Of a stretch of DNA of 64,000 bases, positions 4,031 through 40,004 are shown piece by piece. The position numbers and the translations under genes were made by a program. The notes beneath the pieces are model-generated. The model worked only from the letters and a program-made list of their open reading frames with translations. It was not told the DNA's origin and did not search any database. Positions within the stretch are counted from its first letter, which is position 1. Each line of letters starts with the position of its first letter. The DNA is from an uncultured Clostridia bacterium (GTDB taxonomy: Bacteria; Bacillota; Clostridia; TANB77; CAG-465), in contig CANPWO010000003.1 in assembly GCA_947584535.1 (NCBI GenBank), forward strand, positions 3,871 through 67,870, written 5' to 3'.

Positions 4031-4216
4031 ATGTGTGGATGTAATAACTCTTGGAATAATTGTTGCTGTCAAAAAAGTAATAATTGTTGTCAACAACAAA
4101 CAACTTGCATTTGTAAATGTTGTAAACAAGTAAGTAATTCTTGTTGTTGCCAAAATAAAATGCAACAACCATCTTGTTGCTGTTCTAATATTGGTACAGG
4201 ATATAACAACTGGTAA
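4031..4216 (+). CDS. cysteine-rich small protein (61 aa, 20 Cys, N/Q-rich)
   Basis: A GAAAGGGGA SD precedes the ATG. Sequence: MCGCNNSWNNCCCQKSNNCCQQQTTCICKCCKQVSNSCCCQNKMQQPSCCCSNIGTGYNNW. The CDS has its own terminator hairpin downstream. Confidence 0.55.
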   Translation: MCGCNNSWNNCCCQKSNNCCQQQTTCICKCCKQVSNSCCCQNKMQQPSCCCSNIGTGYNNW

Positions 4217-5210: not shown

Positions 5211-5729
5211 ATGGGATATAATACAGGAACTTTTTTGCTCAGAGAAGAATTACTTGAACAAATTTTAAAAAAAATTCTTAAAGCACACGAAAAATTAAAT
5301 AATTTAAATCATATTGATAATATTTTCTATTTAAAGAATGAATATGATAAATATTTAGAAAAACTATTTTATATGTATGATAAACAATTTATGGAAGATT
5401 TATTTTCTAACTTATTAAAAGAAGAATCTTTTAATCCAGCTGATTTTGATAATGCTTGGCTTATGTTTGCATCAAAATACAAAAATTATGGTGTAGTTAA
5501 AAAGTTGATAGAGGATGAAAGAGTTGACCCGTATGCACGTGAAGATGTAGCATTAGAAAACACTTTTATTAAGAATGACCCAATTATGGCTGAATTAATT
5601 CTTAGTGTATATCATAAGGCCATAGTAAATAAGAAAGAAGATCTTTTTAAACATTTAATAAATTATGCTGTTAATAGAGGTCGTTATAAAATGGCACAGC
5701 TACTTTTAAATAAATTAGTACAGGAGTGA
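5211..5729 (+). CDS. hypothetical cytoplasmic protein (172 aa)
   Basis: AAGGAGGA SD. I recognise no family from the sequence. Confidence 0.55.
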   Translation: MGYNTGTFLLREELLEQILKKILKAHEKLNNLNHIDNIFYLKNEYDKYLEKLFYMYDKQFMEDLFSNLLKEESFNPADFDNAWLMFASKYKNYGVVKKLIEDERVDPYAREDVALENTFIKNDPIMAELILSVYHKAIVNKKEDLFKHLINYAVNRGRYKMAQLLLNKLVQE

Positions 5730-6637: not shown

Positions 6638-9600
6638 ATGAAAACAGGTATAAACAAAGTTGCAATGAAAGATAAAAAAGAAGGAATATCATTACTAGTA
6701 TTAATAATAACAATAATAGTAATGATAATACTAGCAGGAGCTGTAATCTTGTCAATAACAAATAATAATCCAGTATCAAAAGCAAATGAAACTAAGGTAA
6801 AAACAGATTTAACAGCATTAAAAGATGAGTATAATAATTTTTACTCAAGTGCCTTGTTTGATAATGTATCAAATACAAAAGGATACTATACAGACAAGAT
6901 GAATATAACAAAAGAAGGAAATATAATATATAAAGGAAAAGTAGTAAACGAGGGTGAAAATAACAGTCTCGCTTCTATCATGCCAAGTATAGTAGGAACA
7001 GAATACGAAGGGAAAGTATTTGTAGCAGATGGGAAGATATATATAGATAACAGAGATAAGTTTTTAAGTGAAGAACAACAAGAATGGGCAAAAGAAGTAG
7101 GAATAAATATATTAAATGAAGGAGAAGTACTGGTATTAAGTACAGAGGAAGTAAGCTTAAAGATAAGTCAAAAAGAAAGAATATATGCAACAGTATTGCC
7201 AGATGCAGATAGCCAAGTAGAATTTGAAATAGATGAGCAAACAAGAGCAAGAATAATAGAAGAAAAAGAAAATACAGTAGATATACAAGGAATAAGTGAT
7301 GGAATAGCAATACTAACAGCAAAAGTAACAGCAAAAGATGGAGTAGAGATAGAAAAGAAAGTAACAGTAAAAGTAAATGTAGGAGACTATATAAAAGTAG
7401 AAAGAATAACAATAGATCCAAGTGAAGTAGTACTTGGATTAGATGACGAACAACAGTTAAGAGCAATAATAACACCAGAGAGTGCAGATAACCAAGATGT
7501 ATCATGGGAAGTAGAAAGTCAAAATCCACAAGGCGCAGTAGAGTTATCACAAATAGGAGTAGTAACAGGAAGAGATGTAGGAGAAGCAAAGATAATAGCA
7601 AAGGGAGAATATGGAAACTTAACATCAGAAGTATGTAGTGTAAGTGTAATAGATAAAACAAAAATAACACTAGATAAGCAAACATTGCAATTAAGAAAAG
7701 GACAAAAAGATACATTAAAAGCAACAGTAGAAAATAAAAATGTAAGAGAAGGAACATTAACGTGGGAAACAAGTGATGATGCAAAAGTAGGAGTAGACCA
7801 GGATGGAAATATAACAGCAAAAGAAGTAGGAAGTGCAACAATAACAGCAAAATATCTAACTAAATCAGTAAGCTGTGTAGTAACAGTAGAAGAACCACTA
7901 AACTTAAAAGCAGAAGTAACAGAGGCAAGAGGAACAATAGTAATATTAAAAATAGATGCAGATACAACATATTCAACAATAGATAAAATACAAGTAAGAT
8001 ACAAAGAAGAAAATGCAACAGAATGGCAAACACAAGAAATAACAGTAAATGCAGAAACATATTCAAAAGATGATTATCAAATAACAGGATTAACAGCAGA
8101 AAAGAAATATGACATAGAAGTAATAGCACACTTAAAAGATGGCGGACAAGATAAAAAAGTAGTATTAACAGCAACACCAAGTAAAATACCAGTAGAAAGT
8201 GTAACAATATCACCAAAGCCATTACAAATATACCATGGAGATAAAACAAAAAAATTAGAAGCAAAAGTATTGCCACAAGATGCAACAAACAAAAAAGTAA
8301 GATGGGAAAGTAGTCAAAAAGATATAGCAACAATAGATGCAAATGGAACAATAACACCAGTAGAAGTAGGAACAACAATAATAACAGCTATATCAGAAGA
8401 TGATGAAACAAAAAGAGATACTTGTGAAGTAGAAATACAAGAACCAATAACATTTAGTGCAAGTGTAGTAAAAGAAAGTATAACATCAAGTATAATACCA
8501 TTAAATATATATGCAAAAACAGAATATGGTAATATAACAGAAATAAAAGTAAGGTATAAAGAAAAAACAGAAACAGAAGAAACAAAGTGGCAAGAAATAA
8601 CAATACCAGAAGCTGTAAATGAAACAGAATATACAAATGAAAAATACCAAATAACAAATTTAAAACCATATACAGAATATGAAATAGAAGTAAGTGTAAC
8701 AATATCAAGTGGAAGAAGTAAAAAAGAAACATTAGAAGTAACACAAACTAAAAAAATAGATGTATCAAGTATAACAATAGAACCAACAACTATACAGATA
8801 CCACTTGGAAATACAAAAGAAATACAAGCAACATTAACACCAAAAGATGCAACATTCCAAGGACTAACTTGGGAAAGTGAAAAAACAAATATAGCAACAA
8901 TAACAGGAGAAGAAACAGCAACAGATGGAGTAGCAAAAGCAACAATAATAGCAAAAGAGATAGGAAATACAACAGTAACAGTAAAATCAAAAGATAACGA
9001 ACAAGCAATAGCTGAGTGCCAAGTACAAGTAACAGAGCCAATATCATTAACAGCAAGTGTAGATACAGGTGGAATAACAGAAACAGTAATACCAGTAAAT
9101 ATACAAACATCAACAGAACATGGAACAATAAGTAAAATAGAAGTAATGTATAAGAAAAAAGATACAGAAGATGAATATACAACACAAAATGTAGAGATAC
9201 AACCAGACCAAACAGAATATAACGGAAAATATGAAATAAAAAACTTAGAGCCAGGAATAGAATATAGCATACAAGTAAAAGTAACAATAACAAGTGAACA
9301 AATAAAAGAACATAGTAAATCAATAAACGATTTAGAAGGAACAACTAAGAAAATAAATGTAGATAGTATAACTTTAGATAAGACAGAAGAAACAATAATA
9401 CTTGGAAGTATGGATTCATTACAACTAACAGCAACAATACAACCACCAGATGCAACAAACAAACTATTAACTTGGACAAGTAATGAACAAACAGTAGCAG
9501 AGGTAGACCAAACAGGAAAAGTAACAATAAAAGGAGTAGGAAGTGCAATAATAACAGTTACATCACAAGATAACGAAAGTGCAAAAGCAGAATGTAAAAT

Positions 9601-12600
9601 AACAGTAATAAATCCAGTAGAAGTAGAAGTAAATAAACCAGAATTATTACCTGGAATGACAGCAATAACGTTTGATGAAAATGGTCAACCACAAGCAACA
9701 GATGAAAATAATCCAGATTGGTATTCCTATGTAGACCAAGGAAATTATGGAACAGATGCAAAGTTAAGTCATTGGGCAAATGCGCAAACAGCAGATGGAA
9801 GCCAGTGGGTATGGATACCAAGGTATGCATACAAGATAGTAAGACAACCAAACGATTATACAACCGAAGGTGGAGAAATAGACATTAAATTTATGAGCGG
9901 AACAAGTAGTACAAAATATATAGACGAAAATGGAGACTTACAAGATTTACCAAAAGATTATATAGTACATCCAGCATTTACAGATGAAAGTAAAAAAGAA
10001 CCAGCGTATGCAAATGGTGGATGGAATGAAGAGTTAACAGGAATATGGGTAGCAAAATACGAAGCAAGTAAAGGAGAAGGAACAGAAAGTCAATCACAAC
10101 AAACATATCCAAAATTTGTACAAGGAGAAAATTCATATGTAGAAATCAATATAGGAGATATGTTTACATTATGCAAAAATTTAGCAACAGATACTAATAA
10201 CCCATACGGATTTTCTTCTTCAAAAGTAGATACACATCAAATGAAGAATAGTGAATGGGGAGCAGTAGCTTACCTAGCACAAAGTAAATATGGAAGAAAT
10301 GGAGTAGAGGTACAGCAAAACAAAGTTTATAATAATAGTAGTGGAGCAAAAACAGGATATGGAGAAAGCACATCATATCCATACAATACACCAGAAGGAC
10401 AGAAAGCATCAACAACAGGTAATCTATACGGTATATATGATATGAGTGGAGGAGCATATGAATATACAGCAGGATATCTAAATAATGGTAATAGATATTT
10501 AAAAAGCTATGGACAATCACTATTAGATGAAACAAATAATAAAGATAACAAAAAAGGAAGTGGAGCATCAACAAAATACGTATCAATATATAACGTAGGA
10601 GAAAGTGATACTCAAGAAAACAATTATAATGAAGAAACAAACAAAGCAAGAAAAGGAGAAGCAATATGGGAGACATCCACTTCTGGAAATAGTAGCAATG
10701 GAAGTTGGTTTGGCGACTATTCATATTTCTCTGACACGTTGAATCCGTTCTTGAGGCGTGGAGGCAGTTACTATAATGGCGGTACTCTCGCGGGTCTATT
10801 CGGCTTCGACTTACATGATGGCATTGTGTACAGTTACAGCGTTTTTCGTGCAGTGTTATGCAAAAAAATACCAGTAACAAGTATTAAGCTAGATAGAACA
10901 GAAGAAACTGTGTTTATAGAAGAAGGAAAAACAATACAACTTACAGCAACAGTATTACCAGAGAATGCATCAAATAAAGAAGTAACATGGACAACAAATA
11001 ATGAGCAAGTAGCAACAGTAGAAGGTAATGGATTAAATGCAACAGTAACAATAAAAGGAGTAGGTCAAACAAAAATAACAGTAACATCAAAAGAAAATAG
11101 TAATGTAAGTGCTTCATGTATAATAACAGTAATAAATCCAGTAGCAAAAATAGGAAGTGAATATTACGATACACTTCAAGAAGCATTTGATGCAAGTTCA
11201 ACAAACTCAAATACATATTCAGATATACAAGTATTAAAAGATATAACAAATAAAACAGCAACACTAAGTAATAACAAATACGCAAAACTAAATTTAGGAG
11301 CACATACAATAACAAATGACCAAGGAGATAAAGCAACAATAACAAATGAAGGATATATGCAAATAGTAGGAGGAGGAAGTTCAACTATATCAAGTACAGT
11401 TGGAAATGCAATAAAAAATATAAATACATTAACAATAAACACAAGCGGAACAATAACATCAAATCAAGATGCAATAGATAATACAAAAACATTAACAGTA
11501 ACAAAAGGAACAATAACATCAACAGGAAGTGATAGTAATAATAGTCATGGAATAAATAATAGTTCAACGCAAGGAAATGTAAATATAACAGGAGGAAAAA
11601 TTGAAGGACGTGACGGAATAAGAAATAGTGGAACATTAACAATTGCAGGAGGAGTTATAAATTCAACTACAGATGATGCAGTAGAGTTTGTAAATGGAAC
11701 AATAGACATAACAGATGGAGAAGTAACAGGAACTAATGGAATATATAATTCAAATGGAGGAACAGCAACAAACAAAGTATTAACAATAGGAAAAGATAAG
11801 GATTCAGTAAATATAACTAACCCAAAAATAACAGTAACAAATATAGCAGTATATAATGGAACTGAAACATTTACATCAAACTTTTATGATGGAGCAGTAA
11901 CAGGAAATGTACAATTTTATAAACAAGATGAAGTAAATATACCAAAAAGATATGAGATAGTAGTAAATGGAAATACCGCAATATTACAAAAACCAGTAGT
12001 ATATGGAACAAATGGAAATCAAGAAGAAGGAACAGGCAAAGTAAATGCACCAGAGATACTTGAAGGAATGAAGGCAATAAAATTTGCTGAAGATGGAAGT
12101 GGAAAGTCAGAAGAAACAACAACAGATGACCCAGCTTGGTATGCGTACAAAGAAAGCAAACAAGAATTTGGAACAGATAATACAACAAGTAGATGGGCAA
12201 ATGCAGAAACAGAAGATGGAAGCCAGTGGGTATGGATACCAAGGTATGCATACAAGATAGTAAAAGAGCCAGAATATACAGGAAGTGGAAGTTCGCAAAA
12301 AACAACCGCAGGTGGAGAGATAGATATAATATTCTTAAAAGGAACAAGTAATAAGTATGAAGACGAAAATGGAGATGAACAAGAAATACCGAAAGATTAT
12401 ATTGTACATCCAGCATTTAGAGATGAAACAGACACACAATTTGCAAATGGTGGATGGGATAGTGAATTAACAGGAATATGGGTATCAAAATACGAAGCAG
12501 GAAAAGGAGGAACTGAAATAGAAAGTACATCAGGAAAAGCATATCCAAAATTTGTACCAGGACGAACTTCTTATGGAAGTTATGGAAGTCTTAAAATAGG

Positions 12601-13303
12601 AGATATATTCACATTATGCAAAAATCTAAACCAAAGTGGTAATCCATACGGATTTTCTTCTTCAACAGTAGACACACATCAAATGAAGAATAGTGAATGG
12701 GGAGCTTGTGTCTATCTTGCACAAAGTAAATATGGAAGAAATGGAGTAGAGGTAACGCAAAACAAAAAAAATGGTAATAATAGTTTACCTCCAGAAACGG
12801 GATATGGAGCAAGCACATCAGCAACATACAATACACAAAGTGGTCAATTAGCATCAACAACAGGAAACATATACGGAATATATGATATGAGTGGAGGAAC
12901 AATGGAATATACAGCAGGATATCTAAAAGGTGGTACTAGTTATAGTAGTTTAACAACATCCGGACAATCACTAGTAGACGAAACAAATAAAGATGGAGAA
13001 AAGAAATCAACGAAATACGTATCTGTATACGAAGGTAGTAGTTCAAGCTATAGTACAAATTATAACAATGCAAAAAACAGTAAAAGAAAAGGAGAAGCAA
13101 TATGGGAGACATCTAAAAGAGGAGATGGCTATACAAGTTGGTTTGGCGACACTTCATATTTTTCTGAACCGACGTATCCATTCTTGTTGCGTGGAGGTTA
13201 TTCCAGCGAGAGTGGTACTAATGCGGGACTATTCTACTTTAACGGCGGCCTTGGCAATGTGGGCAGTTCCTACGGTTTTCGTGCAGTGTCGGTCCCACTT
13301 TAA
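6638..13303 (+). CDS. giant (2221 aa) multidomain cell-surface protein: N-terminal hydrophobic anchor, 7 Big_2 Ig-like domains, 3 FN3-like domains, a parallel beta-helix-like segment and two FGE-sulfatase-like (SUMF1-fold) modules; no LPXTG
   Basis: Single open frame with GGAGG SD. Big_2 repeats (e.g. ITIDPSEVVLGLDDEQQLRAIITPESADNQDVSWE...). FN3-like repeats (EPLNLKAEV...KYDIEVIAHL). FGE motifs WVWIPRYAYKI, NSEWGAVAYLAQSKYGRNG, YGIYDMSGGAYEYTAGY, RGGS...FRAV occur twice. Confidence 0.9.
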   Translation: MKTGINKVAMKDKKEGISLLVLIITIIVMIILAGAVILSITNNNPVSKANETKVKTDLTALKDEYNNFYSSALFDNVSNTKGYYTDKMNITKEGNIIYKGKVVNEGENNSLASIMPSIVGTEYEGKVFVADGKIYIDNRDKFLSEEQQEWAKEVGINILNEGEVLVLSTEEVSLKISQKERIYATVLPDADSQVEFEIDEQTRARIIEEKENTVDIQGISDGIAILTAKVTAKDGVEIEKKVTVKVNVGDYIKVERITIDPSEVVLGLDDEQQLRAIITPESADNQDVSWEVESQNPQGAVELSQIGVVTGRDVGEAKIIAKGEYGNLTSEVCSVSVIDKTKITLDKQTLQLRKGQKDTLKATVENKNVREGTLTWETSDDAKVGVDQDGNITAKEVGSATITAKYLTKSVSCVVTVEEPLNLKAEVTEARGTIVILKIDADTTYSTIDKIQVRYKEENATEWQTQEITVNAETYSKDDYQITGLTAEKKYDIEVIAHLKDGGQDKKVVLTATPSKIPVESVTISPKPLQIYHGDKTKKLEAKVLPQDATNKKVRWESSQKDIATIDANGTITPVEVGTTIITAISEDDETKRDTCEVEIQEPITFSASVVKESITSSIIPLNIYAKTEYGNITEIKVRYKEKTETEETKWQEITIPEAVNETEYTNEKYQITNLKPYTEYEIEVSVTISSGRSKKETLEVTQTKKIDVSSITIEPTTIQIPLGNTKEIQATLTPKDATFQGLTWESEKTNIATITGEETATDGVAKATIIAKEIGNTTVTVKSKDNEQAIAECQVQVTEPISLTASVDTGGITETVIPVNIQTSTEHGTISKIEVMYKKKDTEDEYTTQNVEIQPDQTEYNGKYEIKNLEPGIEYSIQVKVTITSEQIKEHSKSINDLEGTTKKINVDSITLDKTEETIILGSMDSLQLTATIQPPDATNKLLTWTSNEQTVAEVDQTGKVTIKGVGSAIITVTSQDNESAKAECKITVINPVEVEVNKPELLPGMTAITFDENGQPQATDENNPDWYSYVDQGNYGTDAKLSHWANAQTADGSQWVWIPRYAYKIVRQPNDYTTEGGEIDIKFMSGTSSTKYIDENGDLQDLPKDYIVHPAFTDESKKEPAYANGGWNEELTGIWVAKYEASKGEGTESQSQQTYPKFVQGENSYVEINIGDMFTLCKNLATDTNNPYGFSSSKVDTHQMKNSEWGAVAYLAQSKYGRNGVEVQQNKVYNNSSGAKTGYGESTSYPYNTPEGQKASTTGNLYGIYDMSGGAYEYTAGYLNNGNRYLKSYGQSLLDETNNKDNKKGSGASTKYVSIYNVGESDTQENNYNEETNKARKGEAIWETSTSGNSSNGSWFGDYSYFSDTLNPFLRRGGSYYNGGTLAGLFGFDLHDGIVYSYSVFRAVLCKKIPVTSIKLDRTEETVFIEEGKTIQLTATVLPENASNKEVTWTTNNEQVATVEGNGLNATVTIKGVGQTKITVTSKENSNVSASCIITVINPVAKIGSEYYDTLQEAFDASSTNSNTYSDIQVLKDITNKTATLSNNKYAKLNLGAHTITNDQGDKATITNEGYMQIVGGGSSTISSTVGNAIKNINTLTINTSGTITSNQDAIDNTKTLTVTKGTITSTGSDSNNSHGINNSSTQGNVNITGGKIEGRDGIRNSGTLTIAGGVINSTTDDAVEFVNGTIDITDGEVTGTNGIYNSNGGTATNKVLTIGKDKDSVNITNPKITVTNIAVYNGTETFTSNFYDGAVTGNVQFYKQDEVNIPKRYEIVVNGNTAILQKPVVYGTNGNQEEGTGKVNAPEILEGMKAIKFAEDGSGKSEETTTDDPAWYAYKESKQEFGTDNTTSRWANAETEDGSQWVWIPRYAYKIVKEPEYTGSGSSQKTTAGGEIDIIFLKGTSNKYEDENGDEQEIPKDYIVHPAFRDETDTQFANGGWDSELTGIWVSKYEAGKGGTEIESTSGKAYPKFVPGRTSYGSYGSLKIGDIFTLCKNLNQSGNPYGFSSSTVDTHQMKNSEWGACVYLAQSKYGRNGVEVTQNKKNGNNSLPPETGYGASTSATYNTQSGQLASTTGNIYGIYDMSGGTMEYTAGYLKGGTSYSSLTTSGQSLVDETNKDGEKKSTKYVSVYEGSSSSYSTNYNNAKNSKRKGEAIWETSKRGDGYTSWFGDTSYFSEPTYPFLLRGGYSSESGTNAGLFYFNGGLGNVGSSYGFRAVSVPL
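9608..10866 (+). repeat. intragenic repeat unit 1 (FGE-sulfatase-like module, about 420 codons)
   Basis: Its protein is roughly 60-70% identical to unit 2. It contains a 49-bp stretch (9794-9842) identical to 12215-12263, and near-identical stretches at 10203-10260 and 12645-12700. Confidence 0.8.
12037..13300 (+). repeat. intragenic repeat unit 2 (FGE-sulfatase-like module)
   Basis: Paralogous to 9608..10866 and in frame with it; the offset between the 49-bp cores is 2421 bp. Confidence 0.8.
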
Positions 13304-13892: not shown

Positions 13893-15353
13893 ATGGAATT
13901 ATATAAACTAAGTTTAAAAGAAATTGCAGATAAAATTAAAACAAAACAAGTTAATATAAAAGAAGTTTTAGATAGTGTATATAATAGAATAGACGAAGTT
14001 GAAGATAAACTTGATGCATATATAACACTTGATAAAGAAAATGCATATAAAAGAGCAGAAGAATTACAAGATAGATTAGATAATGGAGAAGATATAGATA
14101 TACTTGGTGGAGTACCTATTGCAATAAAAGATAATATTTGTACTAACGGTTTAAAAACAACTTGTGCTTCAAGAATGTTAGAAGATTTTGTACCAATATA
14201 TGATGCAACAGTAATTACTAAATTAGAACAAGCTGGAGCAATTATACTTGGTAAAACTAATATGGATGAATTTGCTATGGGCTCATCTACAGAAACTTCA
14301 TATATAAAGAAAACTAAAAATCCATATAATACAGAGCATGTGCCTGGTGGCTCAAGTGGTGGTAGTGCAGTAGCTGTATCAGCAGATATGGCATTTGCAT
14401 CTCTTGGAAGTGATACAGGTGGTTCAATAAGACAACCTGCTTCATATTGTAGTGTAGTAGGACTTAAACCAACATACGGTCTTGTATCAAGATTTGGTCT
14501 TATAGCATATGCATCTTCACTAGATCAAATAGGCCCGTTTACAAAAAATGTAGAAGATTCTGCAATAATGCTAAATGTTATATCAGGATACGATAAAAAA
14601 GACACTACATCTGCAAATATAGAGAAAAAAGATTATACAAAATCATTAGTAAATGATATATCAAATATGAAAATTGGTATACCTGATGAATTTGTAAAAG
14701 AAGGTATAAATGAGGAAGTAAAACAAGCATATGATAATGCTATAACTAAATTAGAAAGTCTAGGAGCTGAAATTGTACATATAAATTTAGATTATGCTAA
14801 ATATAGCTTAGCAACATATTATATAATAGCAACTGCAGAAGCATCATCAAATTTAGGTCGTTATGATGGCATAAGATACGGACATAGAGCAAAAGATTTT
14901 GACGACTTAATTGATTTATACAAAAAATCAAGAACAGAAGGTTTCGGAGAAGAAGTAAAAAGAAGAATAATGCTTGGTACATATGTACTTTCTTCAGGAT
15001 ATTATGATGCATATTATAAAAGGGCACAATGTGTTAGAACTCTTATAATTTCTGAATTTAAAAAAGCATTTGAAGAGTGTGATGTAATAGCAATTCCAAC
15101 TGCACCACATACTTCATTTAAATTTAATGAAAAATCAGAAAATCCACTTGAAATGTATCTAGAAGATATATTTACAGTTCCAGTAAATATAGCAGGACTT
15201 CCAGGAATATCAATACCTGCTGGCTTTGATAAAGAAAACTTACCAATAGGCTTGCAAGTAATTGCAAACTCATTTGAAGAAGAAAAATTATTTAAAGTTG
15301 CATATACTTTTGAACAAAATACAGACTTTAGTAAAAAAAGACCAAATATTTAA
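13893..15353 (+). CDS. gatA: Asp/Glu-tRNA amidotransferase subunit A (amidase signature family)
   Basis: 486 aa with the GGSSGGSAVAV amidase signature and KPTYG. Confidence 0.95.
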   Translation: MELYKLSLKEIADKIKTKQVNIKEVLDSVYNRIDEVEDKLDAYITLDKENAYKRAEELQDRLDNGEDIDILGGVPIAIKDNICTNGLKTTCASRMLEDFVPIYDATVITKLEQAGAIILGKTNMDEFAMGSSTETSYIKKTKNPYNTEHVPGGSSGGSAVAVSADMAFASLGSDTGGSIRQPASYCSVVGLKPTYGLVSRFGLIAYASSLDQIGPFTKNVEDSAIMLNVISGYDKKDTTSANIEKKDYTKSLVNDISNMKIGIPDEFVKEGINEEVKQAYDNAITKLESLGAEIVHINLDYAKYSLATYYIIATAEASSNLGRYDGIRYGHRAKDFDDLIDLYKKSRTEGFGEEVKRRIMLGTYVLSSGYYDAYYKRAQCVRTLIISEFKKAFEECDVIAIPTAPHTSFKFNEKSENPLEMYLEDIFTVPVNIAGLPGISIPAGFDKENLPIGLQVIANSFEEEKLFKVAYTFEQNTDFSKKRPNI

Positions 15354-15367
15354 AGGAAGTGATATGT

Positions 15368-17095
15368 ATGTTACAATCTAAACTTATTGGAGATACAAAA
15401 AAAGAATGGCCAAATGAAGCAAGTGTTGTAAGTCACGGTGTTCTTTTAAAAGGTGGCTATATAAAACAAATGGCAACTGGTATATATACATTAATGCCAC
15501 TAGGTAAAAAAGTTATAGCAAAAATAGAAAATATAATTAGAGAAGAAATGAATAAAGTAGGAGCGCAAGAGATTTTAATGCCTGTTGTAGCAACAAAAAA
15601 ATTATGGGATATGTCTGGTAGATATGATAGTGTAGGCTCTGAACTTCTAAGATTTAAAGATAGAAATAACACAGAAATGGTACTTTCAATGACTCATGAA
15701 GAAGCAACAGTATATTCTTTGTTAAGTGAAGCCTCTTCATATCAAAAATATCCATTTTCTGTATATCAATTACAGACAAAATTTAGAGATGAAGCAAGAC
15801 CTCGTGCAGGCCTTATTCGTGTAAGAGAGTTTACAATGAAGGACGCATACTCTTTCCATACTTCACAAGAAAGTTTAGATGAGGAATATGATAAATTCTT
15901 TGAAGCATATAACAATATATACAAAAGAGTTGGGATTCCACAAGTTGTTGCAGTAGCATCTGATACTGGAATAATGGGTGGAAGTGGTGCTCATGAATTT
16001 ATGCTTTTATGTGATAGTGGCGAAGATAAGATAGTTCATTGTTCTTCTTGTAACTACAATGCAAATATGGAAGTAGCATATACAACTAAGTATGATGTAG
16101 TAAATAAAAAAGAAGAAGAGATAGAAAAAATATATACACCAAATATAAAAACTATAGAAGATTTAAAAGAATATACAAAACTTGAAACTTGTAATCTCGG
16201 TAAAGCAGTTATATATAAAAGACTTGATACAGGAAAAACAATTATTGTATTTTTAAGAGCTGACAGAGAAGTAAATGAGACAAAACTTCGTAACTTATTA
16301 AAAGTAGATGATGAAGCTTTAGTACCAAAAAAAGAAGAAAAGGACGATAATATTGTTTATGGCTTTGTAGGACCAGTAAATTTAAATACTGATGCACAAG
16401 TTATATATGATAAATCACTTGAAAATGAAAAATCTTTAGTATTTGGTGCAAATGAAAAAGATTATCATTTAAAAGGAGTAAATATATTAAGAGATGTAGG
16501 AAAAGTAGATTTTGTTGATGTAGCAAAGGTACTTGAAACAGACTATTGCCCTATATGTAATAAAAAAGAATTAACAATTTCAAATGGAATAGAAGTTGGT
16601 AATATATTTAAACTTGGCGATAAATATACTAAAATGTTAAATATGACTTACTCAGATGAAAATGGTAAAACACATTTTCCATTAATGGGTTGTTATGGTA
16701 TTGGTATTGGAAGATTATTTGCTTCAGTACTTGAAGCTAGAGCAACTGAAAATAAACTAAATTTACCACCAAGTATAGCACCATTTGATATACATATATG
16801 TCCACTTGATTATACAAAAAATGAACAAGTAAAAAAGCTTGCTGATGATATATACGAACTTTTGAAATTAAACGGATATGATGTATTACTTGACGATAGA
16901 AACAAAAATGCAGGAGTAAAATTTGCAGATAGTGACTTAATATCTGCACCAATTAGAATTACAGTTAGCAAAAGAAATATTGAAAATGGAGATTTATTAG
17001 AAATAAAAGTATACGATAATGATGAGACTACTCTTGTAACAAAAGACGAATTAGTTAAATATATAGAAGATAAAAGAAAGGAATGGGTATTTTAA
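15368..17095 (+). CDS. proS: prolyl-tRNA synthetase, bacterial type with editing insertion, inside the gat operon
   Basis: Class II motifs TLMPLGKKV, REEMNKVGAQEILMP, FRDEARPRAGLIRVREF and a C-terminal anticodon-binding domain. ATG 15368 has an AAAGGAAG SD; the ORF-track GTG 15359 overlaps the SD. Confidence 0.9.
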   Translation: MLQSKLIGDTKKEWPNEASVVSHGVLLKGGYIKQMATGIYTLMPLGKKVIAKIENIIREEMNKVGAQEILMPVVATKKLWDMSGRYDSVGSELLRFKDRNNTEMVLSMTHEEATVYSLLSEASSYQKYPFSVYQLQTKFRDEARPRAGLIRVREFTMKDAYSFHTSQESLDEEYDKFFEAYNNIYKRVGIPQVVAVASDTGIMGGSGAHEFMLLCDSGEDKIVHCSSCNYNANMEVAYTTKYDVVNKKEEEIEKIYTPNIKTIEDLKEYTKLETCNLGKAVIYKRLDTGKTIIVFLRADREVNETKLRNLLKVDDEALVPKKEEKDDNIVYGFVGPVNLNTDAQVIYDKSLENEKSLVFGANEKDYHLKGVNILRDVGKVDFVDVAKVLETDYCPICNKKELTISNGIEVGNIFKLGDKYTKMLNMTYSDENGKTHFPLMGCYGIGIGRLFASVLEARATENKLNLPPSIAPFDIHICPLDYTKNEQVKKLADDIYELLKLNGYDVLLDDRNKNAGVKFADSDLISAPIRITVSKRNIENGDLLEIKVYDNDETTLVTKDELVKYIEDKRKEWVF

Positions 17096-18534
17096 TGAGA
17101 GAAGATTATGAAGTTGTAATTGGACTTGAAGTTCACGCAGAACTTTCTACAAATACCAAAATATATTGTAATTGTACTACAAAGTTTGGAGCAGATCCAA
17201 ATACACATTGTTGCCCAATTTGTACAGGAATGCCAGGTACTTTGCCAGTACTTAACGAAAAAGTAGTAGAATATGCAATAAAAATGGGACTTGCAACAAA
17301 TTGTGAAATAGCTAAATTTTCTAAGCAAGATAGAAAAAATTATTTTTATCCTGATTTACCAAAAGCATATCAGGTATCACAATATGACCTTCCACTTTGT
17401 GAAAGAGGACATATTGATGTAATGCTAGAAGATGGAGAAAAGAAAAGAATAGGTATAACTAGAATACATATCGAAGAAGATGCAGGAAAATTAATACATG
17501 ATGCATATACAGGGGATACTTTAGTAGATATGAATAGATGCGCTGTACCATTAATTGAAATTGTATCTGAGCCTGATATTAGAAGTGCTAAGGAAGCAGT
17601 AGCATATATGCAAACATTAAAGTCAATTCTTGAATATCTTGAAATATGTGACTGTAAAATGCAAGAAGGATCACTTAGATGTGATGTAAATCTATCTGTT
17701 AGAAAGAAAGGGCAAACAGAATTTGGAACAAGAACAGAAACTAAGAATTTAAATTCTTTTAAAGCAATAGAAAGAGCTATAGAATTTGAAACAGATAGAC
17801 AAATAGAAGAACTAGAAAATGGTGGTACAATATATCAAGAGACAAGAAGATTTGATGATGCAAAAGGTATTGGATATGCAATGCGTTCTAAAGAAGATGC
17901 ACATGACTACAGATATTTCCCAGAGCCTGACCTTGCACCAATTGTAATGAGCGACGAATATGTACAAAATTTAAAAGATAATCTTCCTGAAATGCCTCAT
18001 ATTAAAAAAGAAAGATATATGAAGGAATTTGAACTTAGTGAATATGATGCAAAACATTTAACAGATTCAAAGTATACAGCAAAGTTTTTTGAAAATACAG
18101 TTAAGCTATGTGGCAATGCGAAAGCTGTTGCAAACTGGATAATGAGTGATTTTGCTAAAATGTTAAACGAGTCAGAAATAGAAATACAAGATAGTAAAGT
18201 TACAGAAGAAAATCTAGCTTCTTTAATTAAATTAATTGATTCAGGAAAGATAAGTTCTGCAATAGCTAAAAAAGTGTTTATAGATATGTTTAATACTGGA
18301 GAAGATGCAAATAAAATAGTAGAACAAAAAGGATTAATACAAATTTCTGATGAAGGTGCAATTAAAGAAGTAGTTGAAAAAATAGTAGAAGCTAATCCAA
18401 AATCTGTTGAAGATTATCATAATGGAAAAGATAAAGCTATTGGCTTCTTAGTTGGTCAAATAATGAGAGAAACAAAAGGAAAAGCTAATCCTCAAATTGT
18501 TAACAAGTTATTAAAAGAAATACTAGATAAATAG
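17095..18534 (+). CDS. gatB: Asp/Glu-tRNA amidotransferase subunit B
   Basis: MREDYEVVIGLEVHAEL start typical of GatB. The ATG overlaps the proS stop (TAATG). The ORF-track start 17083 is probably an upstream extension. Confidence 0.93.
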   Translation: MREDYEVVIGLEVHAELSTNTKIYCNCTTKFGADPNTHCCPICTGMPGTLPVLNEKVVEYAIKMGLATNCEIAKFSKQDRKNYFYPDLPKAYQVSQYDLPLCERGHIDVMLEDGEKKRIGITRIHIEEDAGKLIHDAYTGDTLVDMNRCAVPLIEIVSEPDIRSAKEAVAYMQTLKSILEYLEICDCKMQEGSLRCDVNLSVRKKGQTEFGTRTETKNLNSFKAIERAIEFETDRQIEELENGGTIYQETRRFDDAKGIGYAMRSKEDAHDYRYFPEPDLAPIVMSDEYVQNLKDNLPEMPHIKKERYMKEFELSEYDAKHLTDSKYTAKFFENTVKLCGNAKAVANWIMSDFAKMLNESEIEIQDSKVTEENLASLIKLIDSGKISSAIAKKVFIDMFNTGEDANKIVEQKGLIQISDEGAIKEVVEKIVEANPKSVEDYHNGKDKAIGFLVGQIMRETKGKANPQIVNKLLKEILDK

Positions 18535-18561
18535 AAATTTTAAATAGAGGTGAGTGTTAAA

Positions 18562-19041
18562 ATGAGAAAAAAGATTATTATATATTCATGTATATCTTTA
18601 GTTATTTTAGCACTCATTTTATTCTTTATATTATTTTTTAATATTAATAGAGATGTAGAAATTGATTTACAAACTTTAAATAAAGAGATTTTAGAAAATG
18701 GAGACTTTAACAACTCAAATACTAAAGAAATAAATATAGAATATATAAATAATACAGTAGGTATTGATAGTAAATATATTGAAGAATATATTGGTATAAT
18801 TCCGTTAGTTGATATATCAGCAAGTCAGTATATAGTAATTAAAACAAATTCTAAAACTGATGCAGAAATTGTATTTGAAAAATTAAGTAATTATGGCGAA
18901 ACTCTTGAAAAAAGTTGGAATAAATTTCTTTTATCGCAACAGCAACTTGTAGCAAATAGGAAAATAGGAATAAAAGGAAAGTATGTCTATTTAATAATTT
19001 CTGAAAATGCAGAAGATATAGAAAATTTAATTTTAAAGTAA
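18562..19041 (+). CDS. hypothetical membrane-anchored protein (about 160 aa)
   Basis: AGAGGTGA SD 9 nt before ATG 18562. N-terminal TM helix followed by a soluble domain of unknown family. Confidence 0.5.
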   Translation: MRKKIIIYSCISLVILALILFFILFFNINRDVEIDLQTLNKEILENGDFNNSNTKEINIEYINNTVGIDSKYIEEYIGIIPLVDISASQYIVIKTNSKTDAEIVFEKLSNYGETLEKSWNKFLLSQQQLVANRKIGIKGKYVYLIISENAEDIENLILK

Positions 19042-19061
19042 TAAAAATATAATTTAAAAAA

Positions 19062-19090
19062 TTGAAATTGTTAAGTATTTGGTATATAAT
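19062..19090 (+). promoter_or_regulatory. sigma-A promoter TTGAAA-17-TATAAT
   Basis: -35 at 19062-19067 and -10 at 19085-19090, upstream of the 19126 ORF. Confidence 0.5.
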
Positions 19091-19125
19091 AATTATAAAT
19101 AAACTAAGTTATAGAAGGTGATATT

Positions 19126-20172
19126 ATGGATAATCAACAAAAAATAAGGATACCGCTAATTGTACTTGTTGGTATAGTTCTTGCATTAATACTTATAACA
19201 TTTTTAGTAATAAAAACTGTTCAAAATATTTCAAGTAATAAAAATATAGATATAAGTAAAAATGATGCACCTCTTGTAATAGATGAAAATAATGATGATG
19301 ATTTAATTGAAGCAAATAATTTAATAGATGAGCAATTAACTGAAAATGAAGAAGATAAAAAAGAAGAAAACGTAGATGAAAATGCAAAAGATAAATTACA
19401 AGATTCTACATCTATTGCAACTTCTAATACTAATTCAAAAGTATCTAGTGTATCTAATAATAAAAATAACAGTAGTAATAATAACAATAATAATAATAGT
19501 AGCACTAACACAAATGATAATAAACCTGATGTTGTTCCTGATAATAGTTCACAAGAAGATAAAAATGAAAAAGTATTATATGATTTATATTCTAAAGTAA
19601 GTATCGGAGATTATGTAGATTATCCAGTTTCATATTCTAATGTTAGTATAAATGGTAAAAAAGCAAGTCTTACTGGCTGGAGAGTACTTAGTAAATCAAA
19701 TGGTACAATTAGTTTAATAAGTGCAGGTGTACCAGAAAGTATTTATCTTCAAGGTATAAGCGGGACTTCAAGTAATGTATTTAATAGTAAAATTAACAAA
19801 TATTTAAATGGTAATTATGCAACTAATGTTCATGTATTAACAATAGAAGAACTAAAACAATTTGTTGGTAACATAAATTTAGATAAGAACCATTCAGTAC
19901 CTACATATACTTCAATTCCACGTTCAAATAAGTATTACAATTTAATAGTTACCCCTGTTGGATATTGGTTATATAATATGATAAACGAAACAGGAAGTAA
20001 ATATAGATTTTATATACATCAAAATGGAATAATAAATAATATATATATGGGCTTTGAAGATAGCAGTTCATCATACAACGCTACTTATGGTATAAGACCA
20101 ATTGTTACACTAAAATATGGCATAAAAACTACTGGAAAGAATAATAATGGTGTATGGAATATAACATTATAG
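19126..20172 (+). CDS. hypothetical secreted/membrane-anchored protein with an acidic region and a poly-Asn/Ser linker
   Basis: 348 aa with an N-terminal TM. NNKNNSSNNNNNNNSSTNTND low-complexity tract at 19440-19520. C-terminal domain of about 200 aa is unrecognised. Confidence 0.6.
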   Translation: MDNQQKIRIPLIVLVGIVLALILITFLVIKTVQNISSNKNIDISKNDAPLVIDENNDDDLIEANNLIDEQLTENEEDKKEENVDENAKDKLQDSTSIATSNTNSKVSSVSNNKNNSSNNNNNNNSSTNTNDNKPDVVPDNSSQEDKNEKVLYDLYSKVSIGDYVDYPVSYSNVSINGKKASLTGWRVLSKSNGTISLISAGVPESIYLQGISGTSSNVFNSKINKYLNGNYATNVHVLTIEELKQFVGNINLDKNHSVPTYTSIPRSNKYYNLIVTPVGYWLYNMINETGSKYRFYIHQNGIINNIYMGFEDSSSSYNATYGIRPIVTLKYGIKTTGKNNNGVWNITL

Positions 20173-20180
20173 ATAGAAAA

Positions 20181-20218
20181 AAGACTGATATTACATTAGT
20201 AATATCAATCTTTTTTTG
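20181..20218. terminator. bidirectional terminator between the 19126 gene and the SCIFF gene
   Basis: AAGACTGATATTAC / GTAATATCAATCTT stem (one mismatch) plus a T7 run. Confidence 0.7.
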
Positions 20219-20221
20219 ATT

Positions 20222-20365
20222 TTATTTGTTCTTTTCACATGACTGGTTTGCTACAGTACAAGAAGTCTTGCAAGCACTTTGACATGAGGTTTGACACTCA
20301 CCGCATCCACCAGTTTTTGCAGAACTTTTTAAACATCCTGCATTTAATGTTTTTGAATGTTTCAT
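20222..20365 (-). CDS. scfA: SCIFF-family (six cysteines in forty-five) ribosomal peptide precursor, 47 aa, not in ORF track
   Basis: Reverse-complement translation: MKHSKTLNAGCLKSSAKTGGCGECQTSCQSACKTSCTVANQSCEKNK. This is a near-verbatim match to the conserved SCIFF core GGCGECQTSCQSACKTSCTV.NQSCE. A GGAGGTG SD sits 7 nt upstream. Confidence 0.8.
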   Translation of the reverse strand: MKHSKTLNAGCLKSSAKTGGCGECQTSCQSACKTSCTVANQSCEKNK

Positions 20366-20416
20366 AAGCTAATCACCTCCTAATTATAGTAGATATTTGT
20401 GTATTTTTACTATATT

Positions 20417-20446
20417 ATTATAACATAATATTTACACATTTGTCTA
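20417..20446 (-). promoter_or_regulatory. candidate promoter for the SCIFF gene (TAGACA-18-TATAAT on the minus strand)
   Basis: Minus-strand -10 is TATAAT at 20417-20422 and -35 is TAGACA at 20441-20446. Confidence 0.35.
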
Positions 20447-20476
20447 GTATAATTTATATAAATATTATTTTAACAC

Positions 20477-20505
20477 TTGAATAAACAAATGTTTTATAGT
20501 ATAAT
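20477..20505 (+). promoter_or_regulatory. sigma-A promoter TTGAAT-17-TATAAT for recG
   Basis: -35 at 20477-20482 and -10 at 20500-20505. Confidence 0.5.
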
Positions 20506-20524
20506 TTTTGTGGTGATATAATTA

Positions 20525-22576
20525 ATGGTTGACTTAGAAAAAAATATACAATATTTAAAAGGGGTTGGACCAGCTAAAGCAGCTCTTTTAAATAAACTAG
20601 GAATTTTTAGTATTAATGATATGGTAGAACATTTCCCAAGGACTTACGAAGATAGAACAAGATTAAGAAATATAGTTGATCTAATGGACGGAGATTATGC
20701 TTTATTTGTTGGAAAAATCCAAACAGATATTAAAGTACAAAGAATTAGGAAAAACTTATCTATATTTTCTACATTTGCTTGTGATGATACTGATAATATA
20801 AAACTTACATGGTTTAATCAAAGATATATAAAAGATAGAATAAAATGTGGCATGTCATATATTTTTTATGGAAAAGTGCAAGTAGAATACGGAAGAAAAG
20901 TAATAGATAACCCTCAAATATATAATTTAGCTGAATTAGATAAAGTACAAGGGATTTATCCAGTTTATACATTAACATCAGGTATTACTCAAAATTATTT
21001 ATTTAAGTTAATAAATACAATTTATGAAGATGAGGTATTTAAGCAAGATATATTTAGTGATGATTTTAGAAAAAAATATAATTTAGCAGATATAAACTAT
21101 GCACTTAAAAATATCCATTTTCCTGAAAATTTTTCTGCGATTGATAGAGCAAGAAATAGGATAATATTTGAAGAATTATTTTTATTGCAACTTGCTTTAA
21201 TGACATTAAAAGATAATAGTTTAGGTGTAAAAAAAGAAAATACATATAGCGATATAGATGATAGTGAATTTGCTAAATTATTACCATTTGAATTAACAGG
21301 TGCACAGAAAAGAGTTATAGAAGAAATTAAACAAGACTTAGCATCAAATAAAATAATGAATAGATTAGTTCAAGGGGATGTAGGTTGTGGAAAAACAATG
21401 GTAGCTGCTATTTCTATGTATATTGCTGTAAAAAATGGCTATCAAGCAACAATGATGGCACCAACAACTATACTTGCTAATCAGCATTATAATGAGTTAA
21501 AACCATATTTTGATAAACTTGGAATGAGTGTTGAAATTATAACATCTAGTACTACTAAAAAGAATAAGGAGATAATTTCAAATAAACTAAAAAACAAAGA
21601 AATAGATATTTTAATAGGTACACATTCATTAATAGAAGATAATATAGAGTTTAACAATTTAAGTTTAGTTATAACTGATGAACAACATAGATTTGGTGTA
21701 AAACAAAGAATGAAACTTACAAATAAAGGAAAAAGTGTTGATACAATAGTTATGACAGCAACACCAATTCCAAGATCTCTTGCAATTATTCTTTATGGTG
21801 ATTTAGACCTATCAATAATAGATGAAATGCCACTTGGAAGAACACCTGTTAAGACATATGTAGTTGATAAAACTTACGAATTTAGAATAAATAATTTTAT
21901 AAGGAAAAATGTGGAGGCTGGAAGACAAATTTACGTTGTATGTCCACTTGTAGAAAATAATGATACTTTAGATTTAAAATCAGTTGAAGAAATATATGAA
22001 AAATACAAGAATGAATATTTTAAAGATTTATCTGTTGAGTTTTTACATGGTAAAATGAAAAACAAAGAAAAAGATGATATAATGCAAAGATTTAAAGATA
22101 ACAAAATCAATATACTTATCTCTACAACAGTTATAGAAGTTGGAATAAGTGTTAGTAATGCAACAGTAATGATAATTGAAAATGCAGATAGATTTGGACT
22201 TGCCGCACTACATCAGCTTAGAGGTAGAGTAGGTAGAGGCTCATTTGAGTCATATTGTATATTAAAAAGTGATAATAAATCTCAGAAGGCAAGAGATAGA
22301 CTAAAAATAATGGAAAAGAGTAATAATGGTTTTGAAATTGCTGAAACAGATTTAGAAATAAGGGGACCGGGTGATTTCTTTGGAATAAGACAATCTGGAC
22401 TTCCTGAATTTAAACTTGCTAACTTGTTAAAAGATATGAAGATACTAAAATCAGCACAACAAGCGGTAAAAGATATATTAAAAGAAGATAAATATTTAAA
22501 AGCTCCTGAAAATCAACTAATTAGAGAAGCTTTATTTGATAAATTTGGAGAGCAATTAACTAATATTGCAACATAA
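20525..22576 (+). CDS. recG: ATP-dependent DNA helicase RecG
   Basis: 683 aa. N-terminal wedge domain, DEAD-box helicase motifs GDVGCGKT and DEQHRFG, and a C-terminal helicase domain. Confidence 0.95.
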   Translation: MVDLEKNIQYLKGVGPAKAALLNKLGIFSINDMVEHFPRTYEDRTRLRNIVDLMDGDYALFVGKIQTDIKVQRIRKNLSIFSTFACDDTDNIKLTWFNQRYIKDRIKCGMSYIFYGKVQVEYGRKVIDNPQIYNLAELDKVQGIYPVYTLTSGITQNYLFKLINTIYEDEVFKQDIFSDDFRKKYNLADINYALKNIHFPENFSAIDRARNRIIFEELFLLQLALMTLKDNSLGVKKENTYSDIDDSEFAKLLPFELTGAQKRVIEEIKQDLASNKIMNRLVQGDVGCGKTMVAAISMYIAVKNGYQATMMAPTTILANQHYNELKPYFDKLGMSVEIITSSTTKKNKEIISNKLKNKEIDILIGTHSLIEDNIEFNNLSLVITDEQHRFGVKQRMKLTNKGKSVDTIVMTATPIPRSLAIILYGDLDLSIIDEMPLGRTPVKTYVVDKTYEFRINNFIRKNVEAGRQIYVVCPLVENNDTLDLKSVEEIYEKYKNEYFKDLSVEFLHGKMKNKEKDDIMQRFKDNKINILISTTVIEVGISVSNATVMIIENADRFGLAALHQLRGRVGRGSFESYCILKSDNKSQKARDRLKIMEKSNNGFEIAETDLEIRGPGDFFGIRQSGLPEFKLANLLKDMKILKSAQQAVKDILKEDKYLKAPENQLIREALFDKFGEQLTNIAT

Positions 22577-36734: not shown

Positions 36735-38135
36735 ATGAATAAAAATATTGCTTTATCTATACTAAATGTTAAAGACAATGATTTACCAGATTTTTTGCAA
36801 GAATATAAAGAAAGTATAGATAAAATCAGTAAAATAAAAAATAGTAATATGTTTTCATATATTGTGCATTTTGACGTAATGGATGGAAAATTTGTAAACA
36901 ATATAGGAGTAGATATAAAACATATAAAGCTTGCAAAAGAACTTGGTTTTTATGTTGATACACATCTTATGGTGCAAAATCCAATTGAAGATAAATATAT
37001 TGATAATGCTATATTATATGGAACAGACGATATTACGATACATTATGAAATAGAAAATTTTGAATATACGCTTAAATACTTAAATGAAAAAAAGAAGGAA
37101 TTAAAAGCTAAATTAAATAGAGATTTAGTAATTGGAATATCAATAAAACCAAATACAAAAGTAGAAGAAGTATTAAAATATAAAGACATGTTTACTAAAC
37201 TTTTGGTAATGAGTGTTGAACCAGGACTTGGTGGGCAAAAATATATTGATAGCACAAATGAAAAATTAAAGCATGCAAAATTGCTACTTAAAAATAAGAT
37301 TATACAGGTAGATGGAGGAATAAATTTTAATACTATTAGAGAGCCAATTAACATAGGAGTAGATAGTTTAGTTGTAGGAACATATTTAACAAATTCTAAA
37401 GAATTATTAAATAATATACAAAAAATTGAAATAGTAAAGGATATAGAATATTTACCAAAAAATTCAAATATTGAATTTGATAAAAGAATATTACAAATTA
37501 TACCTGGAGGTTATGGAGAAGGAGATATTTTACTTGGTATAACTATACCTAATACAAGAAAAATCGTAAATAAATGGTACAGACAAATTGATATAGCTAT
37601 TTTAGATGAATTTATTTCTTCGAAATATCATGAATATAGAAGATATGCATGTATTACTTTATCAGAAATGATGAATAATAAAAATGTAAAAAACAAGAAA
37701 GAAGAAATATATAATTTTTTTGAAAAGAATATTAGATATGTAAACAACTGGGATTTAACAGATATAGTTGCACCAAATGTATTAGGTAGTTATTTATTTG
37801 GTAAAGAAGAAAAAGTTATTAAATCAGTTTTACTAAAATATATATCAAATAAAAATTTATGGATAAAACGAATTGGAGTAGTTGCTTGTTTAAAATTTGC
37901 AAAAAGTAAAAATAAAGATATACCACTATATATTATTGATAAAGTATTATATAGCAATGAAGAACTTATAAATAAAGCAGTAGGATGGGTATTAAGAGAG
38001 ATATACAAAGTTTATCCAAAAGATATAGTAGACTATCTAAGTAAAAAGAATAAAGAAGAAAAATTACCAAAATTTGTTTTATCATATGCAATTGAAAAAA
38101 TGAGTATAAAAGAAAAACAGATTATTAAAAAGTAA
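36735..38135 (+). CDS. rpe: ribulose-phosphate 3-epimerase fused to a C-terminal AlkD-family DNA-alkylation-repair (HEAT-like) domain
   Basis: Residues 1-230 carry HFDVMDGKFVNNI, THLMV, MSVEPGLGGQKYI and VDGGIN (Rpe). Residues 240-466 align with B. cereus AlkD: GITIPNTRKIVNKWY, KYHEYRRYACITL, NWDLTDIVAPNVLG, NLWIKRIGVVACLKF, AVGWVLREI. Confidence 0.8.
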   Translation: MNKNIALSILNVKDNDLPDFLQEYKESIDKISKIKNSNMFSYIVHFDVMDGKFVNNIGVDIKHIKLAKELGFYVDTHLMVQNPIEDKYIDNAILYGTDDITIHYEIENFEYTLKYLNEKKKELKAKLNRDLVIGISIKPNTKVEEVLKYKDMFTKLLVMSVEPGLGGQKYIDSTNEKLKHAKLLLKNKIIQVDGGINFNTIREPINIGVDSLVVGTYLTNSKELLNNIQKIEIVKDIEYLPKNSNIEFDKRILQIIPGGYGEGDILLGITIPNTRKIVNKWYRQIDIAILDEFISSKYHEYRRYACITLSEMMNNKNVKNKKEEIYNFFEKNIRYVNNWDLTDIVAPNVLGSYLFGKEEKVIKSVLLKYISNKNLWIKRIGVVACLKFAKSKNKDIPLYIIDKVLYSNEELINKAVGWVLREIYKVYPKDIVDYLSKKNKEEKLPKFVLSYAIEKMSIKEKQIIKK

Positions 38136-39934: not shown

Positions 39935-39946
39935 GAACTTTTGTTT
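39935..39946 (+). promoter_or_regulatory. candidate LexA (Cheo-type) box GAACTTTTGTTT overlapping the lexA -35
   Basis: GAAC-N4-GTTT differs by one base from the Firmicute GAAC-N4-GTTC consensus and overlaps TTGACA at 39945-39950. Confidence 0.45.
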
Positions 39947-39973: not shown

Positions 39974-40004
39974 AAAACAAACATAAGTTTTAGGAGGAAT
40001 TTAT

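Follow-up and report, generated by a model that had tools for sequence, protein, structure and literature searches.

Few RiPP systems of Clostridia are as widespread and as conserved as that of the SCIFF ranthipeptides and their radical SAM/SPASM maturase ScfB, and genome mining finds SCIFF through the maturase, assuming that the precursor and the enzyme are adjacent. The stretch of DNA analysed here (the window; 64 kb, 26.7% GC) raises the question of what a SCIFF gene does next to recG with no maturase beside it, i.e. whether it is a genuine and stable gene, how it came to this site and which enzyme, if any, would modify its product.

A SCIFF precursor gene next to recG

Reading the letters of the window without database searches, an earlier sequence-only reading had taken a 47-codon frame on the minus strand for a SCIFF precursor, lying between a plus-strand gene of a secreted protein and recG. 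Our comparison with curated models agreed with it on the coordinates as well as on the family. The features of the site are:

20222–20365, minus strand: scfA, 47-aa SCIFF precursor MKHSKTLNAGCLKSSAKTGGCGECQTSCQSACKTSCTVANQSCEKNK, matching TIGR03973 and PF13165
20373–20381, minus strand: Shine-Dalgarno sequence AGGAGGTGA, ending 7 nt before the scfA ATG, as read from the sequence
20417–20446, minus strand: scfA promoter-like site (-35 TAGACA, 18-nt spacer, extended -10 TGtTATAAT), of predicted function
20177–20216, bidirectional: intrinsic-terminator hairpin from RNA folding (A-run, 12-bp GC-poor stem extended by A-U pairs, U-run)
19126–20172, plus strand: gene of a 348-aa protein with one N-terminal hydrophobic helix, convergent with scfA; a variable neighbour
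20477–20505, plus strand: recG promoter-like site (TTGAAT-17-TATAAT), with the palindrome AAAC-N4-GTTT (20483–20494) in its spacer
20525–22576, plus strand: recG (NF008168, 874.7 bits), divergent from the relocated scfA and conserved as its neighbour

The scfA frame matched TIGR03973 with 72.4 bits (E = 2e-20; cutoff 50) and PF13165 with 74.7 bits (E = 5e-21; cutoff 27), and it is a genuine SCIFF (ScfA) precursor gene. Its product consists of leader residues 1–18, followed by GG and a six-Cys core (C21/C24/C28/C32/C36/C43), and at 47 residues it carries the pattern GGCGECxxSCxSACKTSCTVxNQxC of a family of ~45-residue peptides with six invariant cysteines. Alignment of 27 SCIFFs including the window copy revealed 24 invariant columns, all within the Cys pattern, the leader start or the GG junction. 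The family leader M-K-H-x-K-T-L/I-N ... L-K is present as MKHSKTLNAGCLK, and its conserved positions are kept in all four lineages in which we found the gene at this site; the copies of the sister lineages score 78–85 bits, and all four score on par with canonical SCIFFs. Gene callers annotate the frame on other assemblies, and no second SCIFF-like frame was found in the window. The nearest named RecG homologues belong to 'Clostridia bacterium' MAGs and the gene content is Firmicutes-like, in line with the clostridial origin of the family. The 348-aa neighbour matched no Pfam or NCBIfam family; its single hydrophobic segment predicts a protein anchored at its N-terminus, membrane-anchored or secreted, and the two flanking genes are those that had been named.

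In the canonical system (ScfA, TIGR03973, with ScfB, TIGR03974; CteA/CteB of Clostridium thermocellum, Tte1186a/Tte1186), the precursor has the same MKHxKTLN...LK leader, the same GG junction and the invariant core CGECQTSCQSACKTSCTVANQxC that we see in the window peptide, and the promoter and terminator of the window gene resemble those of canonical scfA genes. The window differs in that scfA is divergent from recG instead of lying in the order (queA-tgt-)yajC-scfA-scfB-secDF, and in that the 64 kb hold no scfB. The usual neighbours yajC, secD/secF, tgt and queA are absent from the window as well.

The absence of a maturase beside scfA had also been claimed, together with the statement that the radical SAM genes of the window are limited to three, none of the SPASM type. 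Translation of all six frames led to the same result, revealing only three CxxxCxxC radical SAM proteins and no TIGR03974 maturase immediately downstream of scfA:

41409–42722: RimO, radical SAM, no SPASM domain
49371–50780: PDZ/Radical_SAM_2/DUF512 protein, radical SAM, no SPASM domain
52438–53733: MtaB, radical SAM, no SPASM domain

A ScfB model built from 72 maturases encoded directly downstream of SCIFF genes in other genomes was run without filters on the six-frame translation of the window and had no match (best E = 0.5), and no ScfB-like sequence was found in the locus of any relative either (roughly 110 kb of related loci). As a control, three canonical maturases (from loci L049, L091 and L094) scored 687–717 bits on TIGR03974 (cutoff 425). 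A homologue search seeded with the ScfB of L049 (25.7% GC, the one locus of comparable AT content) led to Massiliimalia-like and other lineages, none of them tied to the clade, and the most AT-biased homologue (P0335) was part of a canonical scfA-scfB pair from an unrelated run and sample. We considered the PDZ-DUF512 protein as a substitute maturase and rejected it: it has no SPASM or auxiliary-cluster domain, matches the TIGR03279 family and, besides being a common protein of the housekeeping type, is encoded 29 kb away.

How rare such an arrangement is was assessed on 160 SCIFF loci (80 from GTDB species representatives and 80 from metagenomes), which are those most similar to the query peptide and not a random sample. 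ScfB sequence followed the SCIFF gene immediately in 80/80 of the representative loci, 76 of them intact, two frameshifted (L018, L022) and two cut by the contig end (L056, L089). Among the metagenome loci, scfA and scfB were adjacent in 75, four ended too soon to judge and one (L117) was different. About 155 of the 156 informative comparison loci therefore carry scfB directly downstream of scfA, in accordance with the expectation of the sequence-only reading that the maturase normally follows at once. The closest SCIFFs outside the clade (P0010, 89%, and P0011, 87%) are in the classic queA-tgt-yajC-scfA-scfB-(x)-secD-secF block, and a second SCIFF within 6–10 kb was found in none of the 160 surveyed loci.

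Three of these loci deserve a separate description. In L117 (positions 234–1596 of a high-GC metagenome contig of 2.9 kb), the SCIFF gene is followed by a frame in which the first ~48 N-terminal residues of ScfB are fused to a metallophosphoesterase-like protein; either scfB underwent a natural deletion or the contig is a chimera. The scfB genes of L018 (10255–11753; Clostridium sp. OF09-36) and L022 (10258–11636; Acetivibrio straminisolvens JCM 21531) are split by frameshifts, either through sequencing error or through pseudogenisation.

Recurrence of the arrangement and its insertion upstream of recG

A rearranged window assembly was a possible explanation for the missing partner, and the sequence-only reading had named it as a refuting outcome. 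It was not borne out. The identical peptide was found in the same context, i.e. DUF4358 gene, 348-aa gene, SCIFF gene on the opposite strand and recG, on at least 10 independently assembled metagenome contigs (several ENA assemblies and Logan runs). A SCIFF gene divergent from recG was found also in three related lineages, in which RecG is 89–97% identical and the other flank varies. The site was compared in the following relatives:

L105, RecG 97% identical: DUF4358 gene, SCIFF gene, recG; 348-aa gene absent
L113/L114, RecG 89%: layout as in the window, 348-aa gene present
L101 (GCA_947624625.1), RecG 89%: gatB, SCIFF gene, recG; 348-aa gene absent
L112, RecG 77%: no SCIFF gene at the site; two Stealth-family genes and an unrelated 68-aa frame
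L110/L111, RecG 75%: no SCIFF gene; only 41 bp between the DUF4358 gene and recG
L108, RecG 70%: no SCIFF gene at the site, other genes there
L106, RecG 64%: no SCIFF gene at the site, other genes there

Given that relatives with 75–77% RecG identity carry no SCIFF gene at this site, the data support the earlier suggestion of a relocated scfA. The promoter region of recG is conserved in the relatives, including L110, which has no SCIFF gene, indicating that it belongs to recG and not to the inserted DNA; as it is common to relatives with and without SCIFF, a cassette of roughly 300 bp was inserted just upstream of it. The insertion is confined to a narrow clade and reproducible across assemblies. 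Searching the surroundings of the cassette for hallmarks of mobile elements revealed no target-site duplication, terminal inverted repeats or transposon-like ends, only AT-rich chance repeats and the terminator hairpin. The search for the nearest canonical relative by way of QueA, GatA/B and DapA reached only 46–66% identity and no close relative.

Between the window and L105, DNA identity is 95.6–97% in the flanking genes, 88% in the DUF4358 gene, 87.5% in scfA and 85% in the spacer between scfA and recG; 18550–20524 forms an island of local divergence that is prone to indels and in which recombination may have played a part.

The palindrome in the recG promoter spacer, ~40 nt from the -35 of scfA, conforms to RAAC-N4-GTTY, which resembles a LexA (Cheo) box. 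This motif occurs three times in the 64 kb, each time in a promoter (20483–20494, 39935–39946 and 39979–39990), and two of the occurrences lie upstream of lexA (40005–40613). Their number is not above chance (4.5 expected), while their placement is striking. The box at recG is conserved in relatives with and without SCIFF, and this conservation together with the placement suggests that recG may be under SOS control.

Expression signals and selection on scfA

Next to the claim of a strong Shine-Dalgarno sequence, which is indeed present upstream of scfA, the sequence-only reading had predicted a promoter at 20417–20446 and had raised the possibility of a decoupled regulatory arrangement. The promoter-like site is there, matching 11 of 12 consensus positions plus the TG of an extended -10. 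It is kept in L105 and L113, and its version in L101 reads TAGACA...TATAAT. The Shine-Dalgarno sequence 'TATAATTAGGAGGTG' is kept in the window, L105 and L101, and L113 retains only 'TTTAGGAGGTG'. Downstream of the scfA stop codon the terminator hairpin folds with -20.1 kcal/mol (z = -8.5), and none of 200 shuffled sequences folded as well. It is common to scfA and the convergent 348-aa gene and can terminate both; its G-C pairs are too few for a consensus scan for terminators, which passed over it. Counterpart hairpins were found in L105 and L113, and in L101 the region downstream of scfA has no comparable hairpin (-1.2 kcal/mol). An Rfam scan of the scfA region gave nothing above threshold. 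Expression of scfA from its own promoter is predicted from these signals.

The idea of a decoupled regulatory arrangement did not hold, since canonical scfA genes usually have an extended -10 and a hairpin too, and a promoter of its own is not a special property of the window gene. In canonical loci, a TGnTAnnnT extended -10 lies 15–90 nt upstream of scfA in 97/145, a TGnTATAAT similar to that of the window gene lies ~50–60 nt upstream, folding of the 80 nt after the scfA stop codon yields a median of -23.6 kcal/mol (shuffled sequences, -14.8), and the median gap between scfA and scfB is ~115 nt. Similarity of the window cassette to the canonical locus L091 extends to ~68 nt upstream of the ATG, through the Shine-Dalgarno sequence and the -10 region, at 72.6% identity over 219 nt, which is weak for AT-rich DNA. 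Canonical scfA genes are thus already semi-autonomous units, and a cassette of promoter, frame and hairpin can be transplanted without loss of expression.

To characterize selection on the relocated gene, we counted substitutions between lineage pairs by the Nei-Gojobori method. Core codons 19–44 gave synonymous/non-synonymous counts of 7/0, 10/2 and 15/2, and over the first 44 codons, i.e. leader and core, pS between lineages was 0.36–0.75 and pN 0.05–0.10. By these comparisons, the relocated scfA is under purifying selection, which shows that the peptide is useful and says nothing on its modification. The leader positions that are conserved family-wide (H3, K5, T6, L7, N8, L12, K13 and S15) are retained in the clade, and the changes fall at positions that vary in the family. 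The exchange K2R, rare in the family (2/114), is fixed in three of the four lineages. A seventh cysteine upstream of the core, Cys11, had been singled out as noteworthy; this position of the leader is variable, with Cys in 16/114 related SCIFFs and C, S, A and C across the four sister lineages, and this variability rules out the residue as a functional novelty.

Together, the data indicate that the scfA gene next to recG is a rare variant of a known system, under selection and stable within its clade. A stably unlinked yet selected precursor is an exception to the adjacency that mining assumes, and genomes of this kind would be overlooked or scored wrongly by mining that starts from the maturase (RODEO- or antiSMASH-style).

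Proposed maturation of the relocated precursor

We consider it probable that scfA is a stand-alone gene the product of which is matured in trans by a remote ScfB. The bacteria of this narrow clade are uncultured gut Clostridia with very AT-rich DNA (about 27% GC), and in their recent ancestor the gene would have moved, as a self-contained cassette of promoter, frame and terminator, into the intergenic region upstream of recG. Monocistronic scfA would be transcribed from its own extended -10 promoter of the sigma-70 type and translated from the strong Shine-Dalgarno sequence, and transcription would end at the bidirectional hairpin. The peptide would most likely still be recognised via its conserved leader by a ScfB radical-SAM/SPASM maturase encoded elsewhere, which would cross-link it in trans (Cys to Thr/Asp-type thioethers). 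We infer the existence and the action of this remote ScfB from the leader: leaders of RiPPs serve enzyme recognition, and since conservation of the leader is expected only with a maturase that binds it, a ScfB probably persists somewhere. Against this reading stands the near-universal adjacency of the two genes (155/156), which leaves essentially no precedent for a SCIFF matured in trans, and to our knowledge a SCIFF precursor remote from its enzyme is essentially unreported.

Uncoupling of the system has already been recognised by curators on the enzyme side, where NCBIfam holds an exception model, NF040492, for a 'ScfB-related radical SAM/SPASM orphan maturase'. The two cases mirror each other, NF040492 being an enzyme without a known peptide and the window scfA a peptide without a known enzyme. 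Among other RiPPs, prochlorosin ProcA peptides are encoded remotely and served by one ProcM, and arrangements of multiple precursors with one enzyme are established. By analogy, a leader-bearing precursor that is transcribed alone and modified in trans is what we propose for the window scfA; prochlorosins differ in that they are of another RiPP class with another enzyme and form a diversified library of precursors, whereas SCIFF is a single, housekeeping-like conserved peptide.

Maturation in trans includes the case of a duplicated scfA, with one copy next to recG and the other in a canonical scfA-scfB pair elsewhere in the genome, so that two precursors share one enzyme. This case, which we hold to be unlikely, is counted as a part of the probability given to maturation in trans and not added to it. 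It is compatible with all data, would explain both the purifying selection and the conserved leader, and finds its analogy in the multi-precursor systems of other RiPP classes such as the prochlorosins. However, neither the window nor the 6–10 kb around any of the 160 surveyed SCIFF genes holds a second copy, and a pangenome survey reported no species with more than one ranthipeptide cluster (bioRxiv 10.1101/2025.02.12.637840).

Alternatively, the clade may have lost scfB and kept the SCIFF peptide for a role that is independent of the maturase, e.g. that of an unmodified peptide which, being rich in thiols, is metal- or redox-active or acts as a signal, or the peptide may be modified by an unrelated enzyme. 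The failure to find ScfB in the 64 kb and in roughly 110 kb of related loci is consistent with such a loss, as is the state of the lineage, which is AT-rich and rearranged: the genes of the usual queA-tgt-yajC-scfA-scfB-secDF block no longer lie together, and what comes after queA in the relative L110 is an unrelated frame rich in Cys. The fixation of K2R points in the same direction, and L117, with its SCIFF gene and only the first 48 residues of ScfB, suggests that scfB may be lost beside an intact scfA. Yet L117 may be a chimeric 2.9-kb contig, and from 64 kb of a genome of probably 1.5–2.5 Mb absence cannot be inferred. Leader positions that are relevant only to enzyme recognition are still conserved, and co-occurrence is the rule for the curators of the family, according to whom each ScfA should come with a ScfB and who counted 234 radical SAM genes within 500 bp of SCIFF genes (PMC5300114). 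On balance we regard a true orphan as doubtful. A clade devoid of any ScfB in which leader and six-Cys core nevertheless remain under strong purifying selection is, in our estimate, improbable; if it were true, SCIFF activity would be independent of radical-SAM thioethers, or an enzyme other than ScfB would have taken over.

The last alternative, an artefact of assembly or binning or a decaying, non-functional relic, for which speak the metagenome-assembled contig and the shortness of the gene, is effectively refuted and retains next to no probability, given the recurrence of the context in three sister lineages and, in identical form, on 10 or more contigs of independent assembly, the intact frame, Shine-Dalgarno sequence, promoter and terminator, the 7–15 synonymous against 0–2 non-synonymous core changes and the scores of the four lineage copies, which are as high as those of canonical SCIFFs.

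The physiological role of SCIFF is unsettled; one study, as cited in PMC8326336, ties it to quorum sensing. Whether the peptide depends on its enzyme is a question that the clade with the unlinked scfA puts to a natural test. Should ScfB be encoded elsewhere, the clade would make a modest addition, i.e. maturation in trans and independent regulation beside a recG that is probably SOS-controlled. Should ScfB be absent, it would be a natural 'maturase knockout' and a useful handle on the function of SCIFF.

Otherwise the window carries ordinary housekeeping genes (gatA-proS-gatB, recG, uvrB, rho, lexA, argS, pfk and others), with several observations in their own right. At 13893–18534, proS lies inside the gatCAB operon (gatA-proS-gatB) and overlaps gatB by 13 nt, an order kept in L101, L110 and L112. 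The plus-strand gene at 36735–38135 encodes a 466-aa fusion of ribulose-phosphate 3-epimerase (~29–218) with a DNA_alkylation repair domain (~262–456). The acetate kinase frame at 96–1127 (plus strand) matches the Pfam model only from 58 to 392 and is preceded by an in-frame stop, so that the first ~57 residues of the protein seem to be lacking, perhaps through a frameshift or because the gene is a pseudogene. A predicted surface protein of 2221 aa with at least six Big_2 domains and fn3-like domains is encoded at 6638–13303 (plus strand), an ankyrin-repeat protein at 5211–5729 and a BspA-type LRR protein at 63247–63864. Finally, a 61-aa frame with 18 cysteines, MCGCNNSWNNCCCQKSNNCCQQQTTCICKCCKQVSNSCCCQNKMQQPSCCCSNIGTGYNNW, at 4031–4216 (plus strand) matched no Pfam family and has syntenic homologues beside the same SDR gene in two relatives, L110 (2579–2752) and L112 (412–591), of 57 and 59 aa; on this ground it probably encodes a genuine Cys-rich small protein that has escaped annotation.
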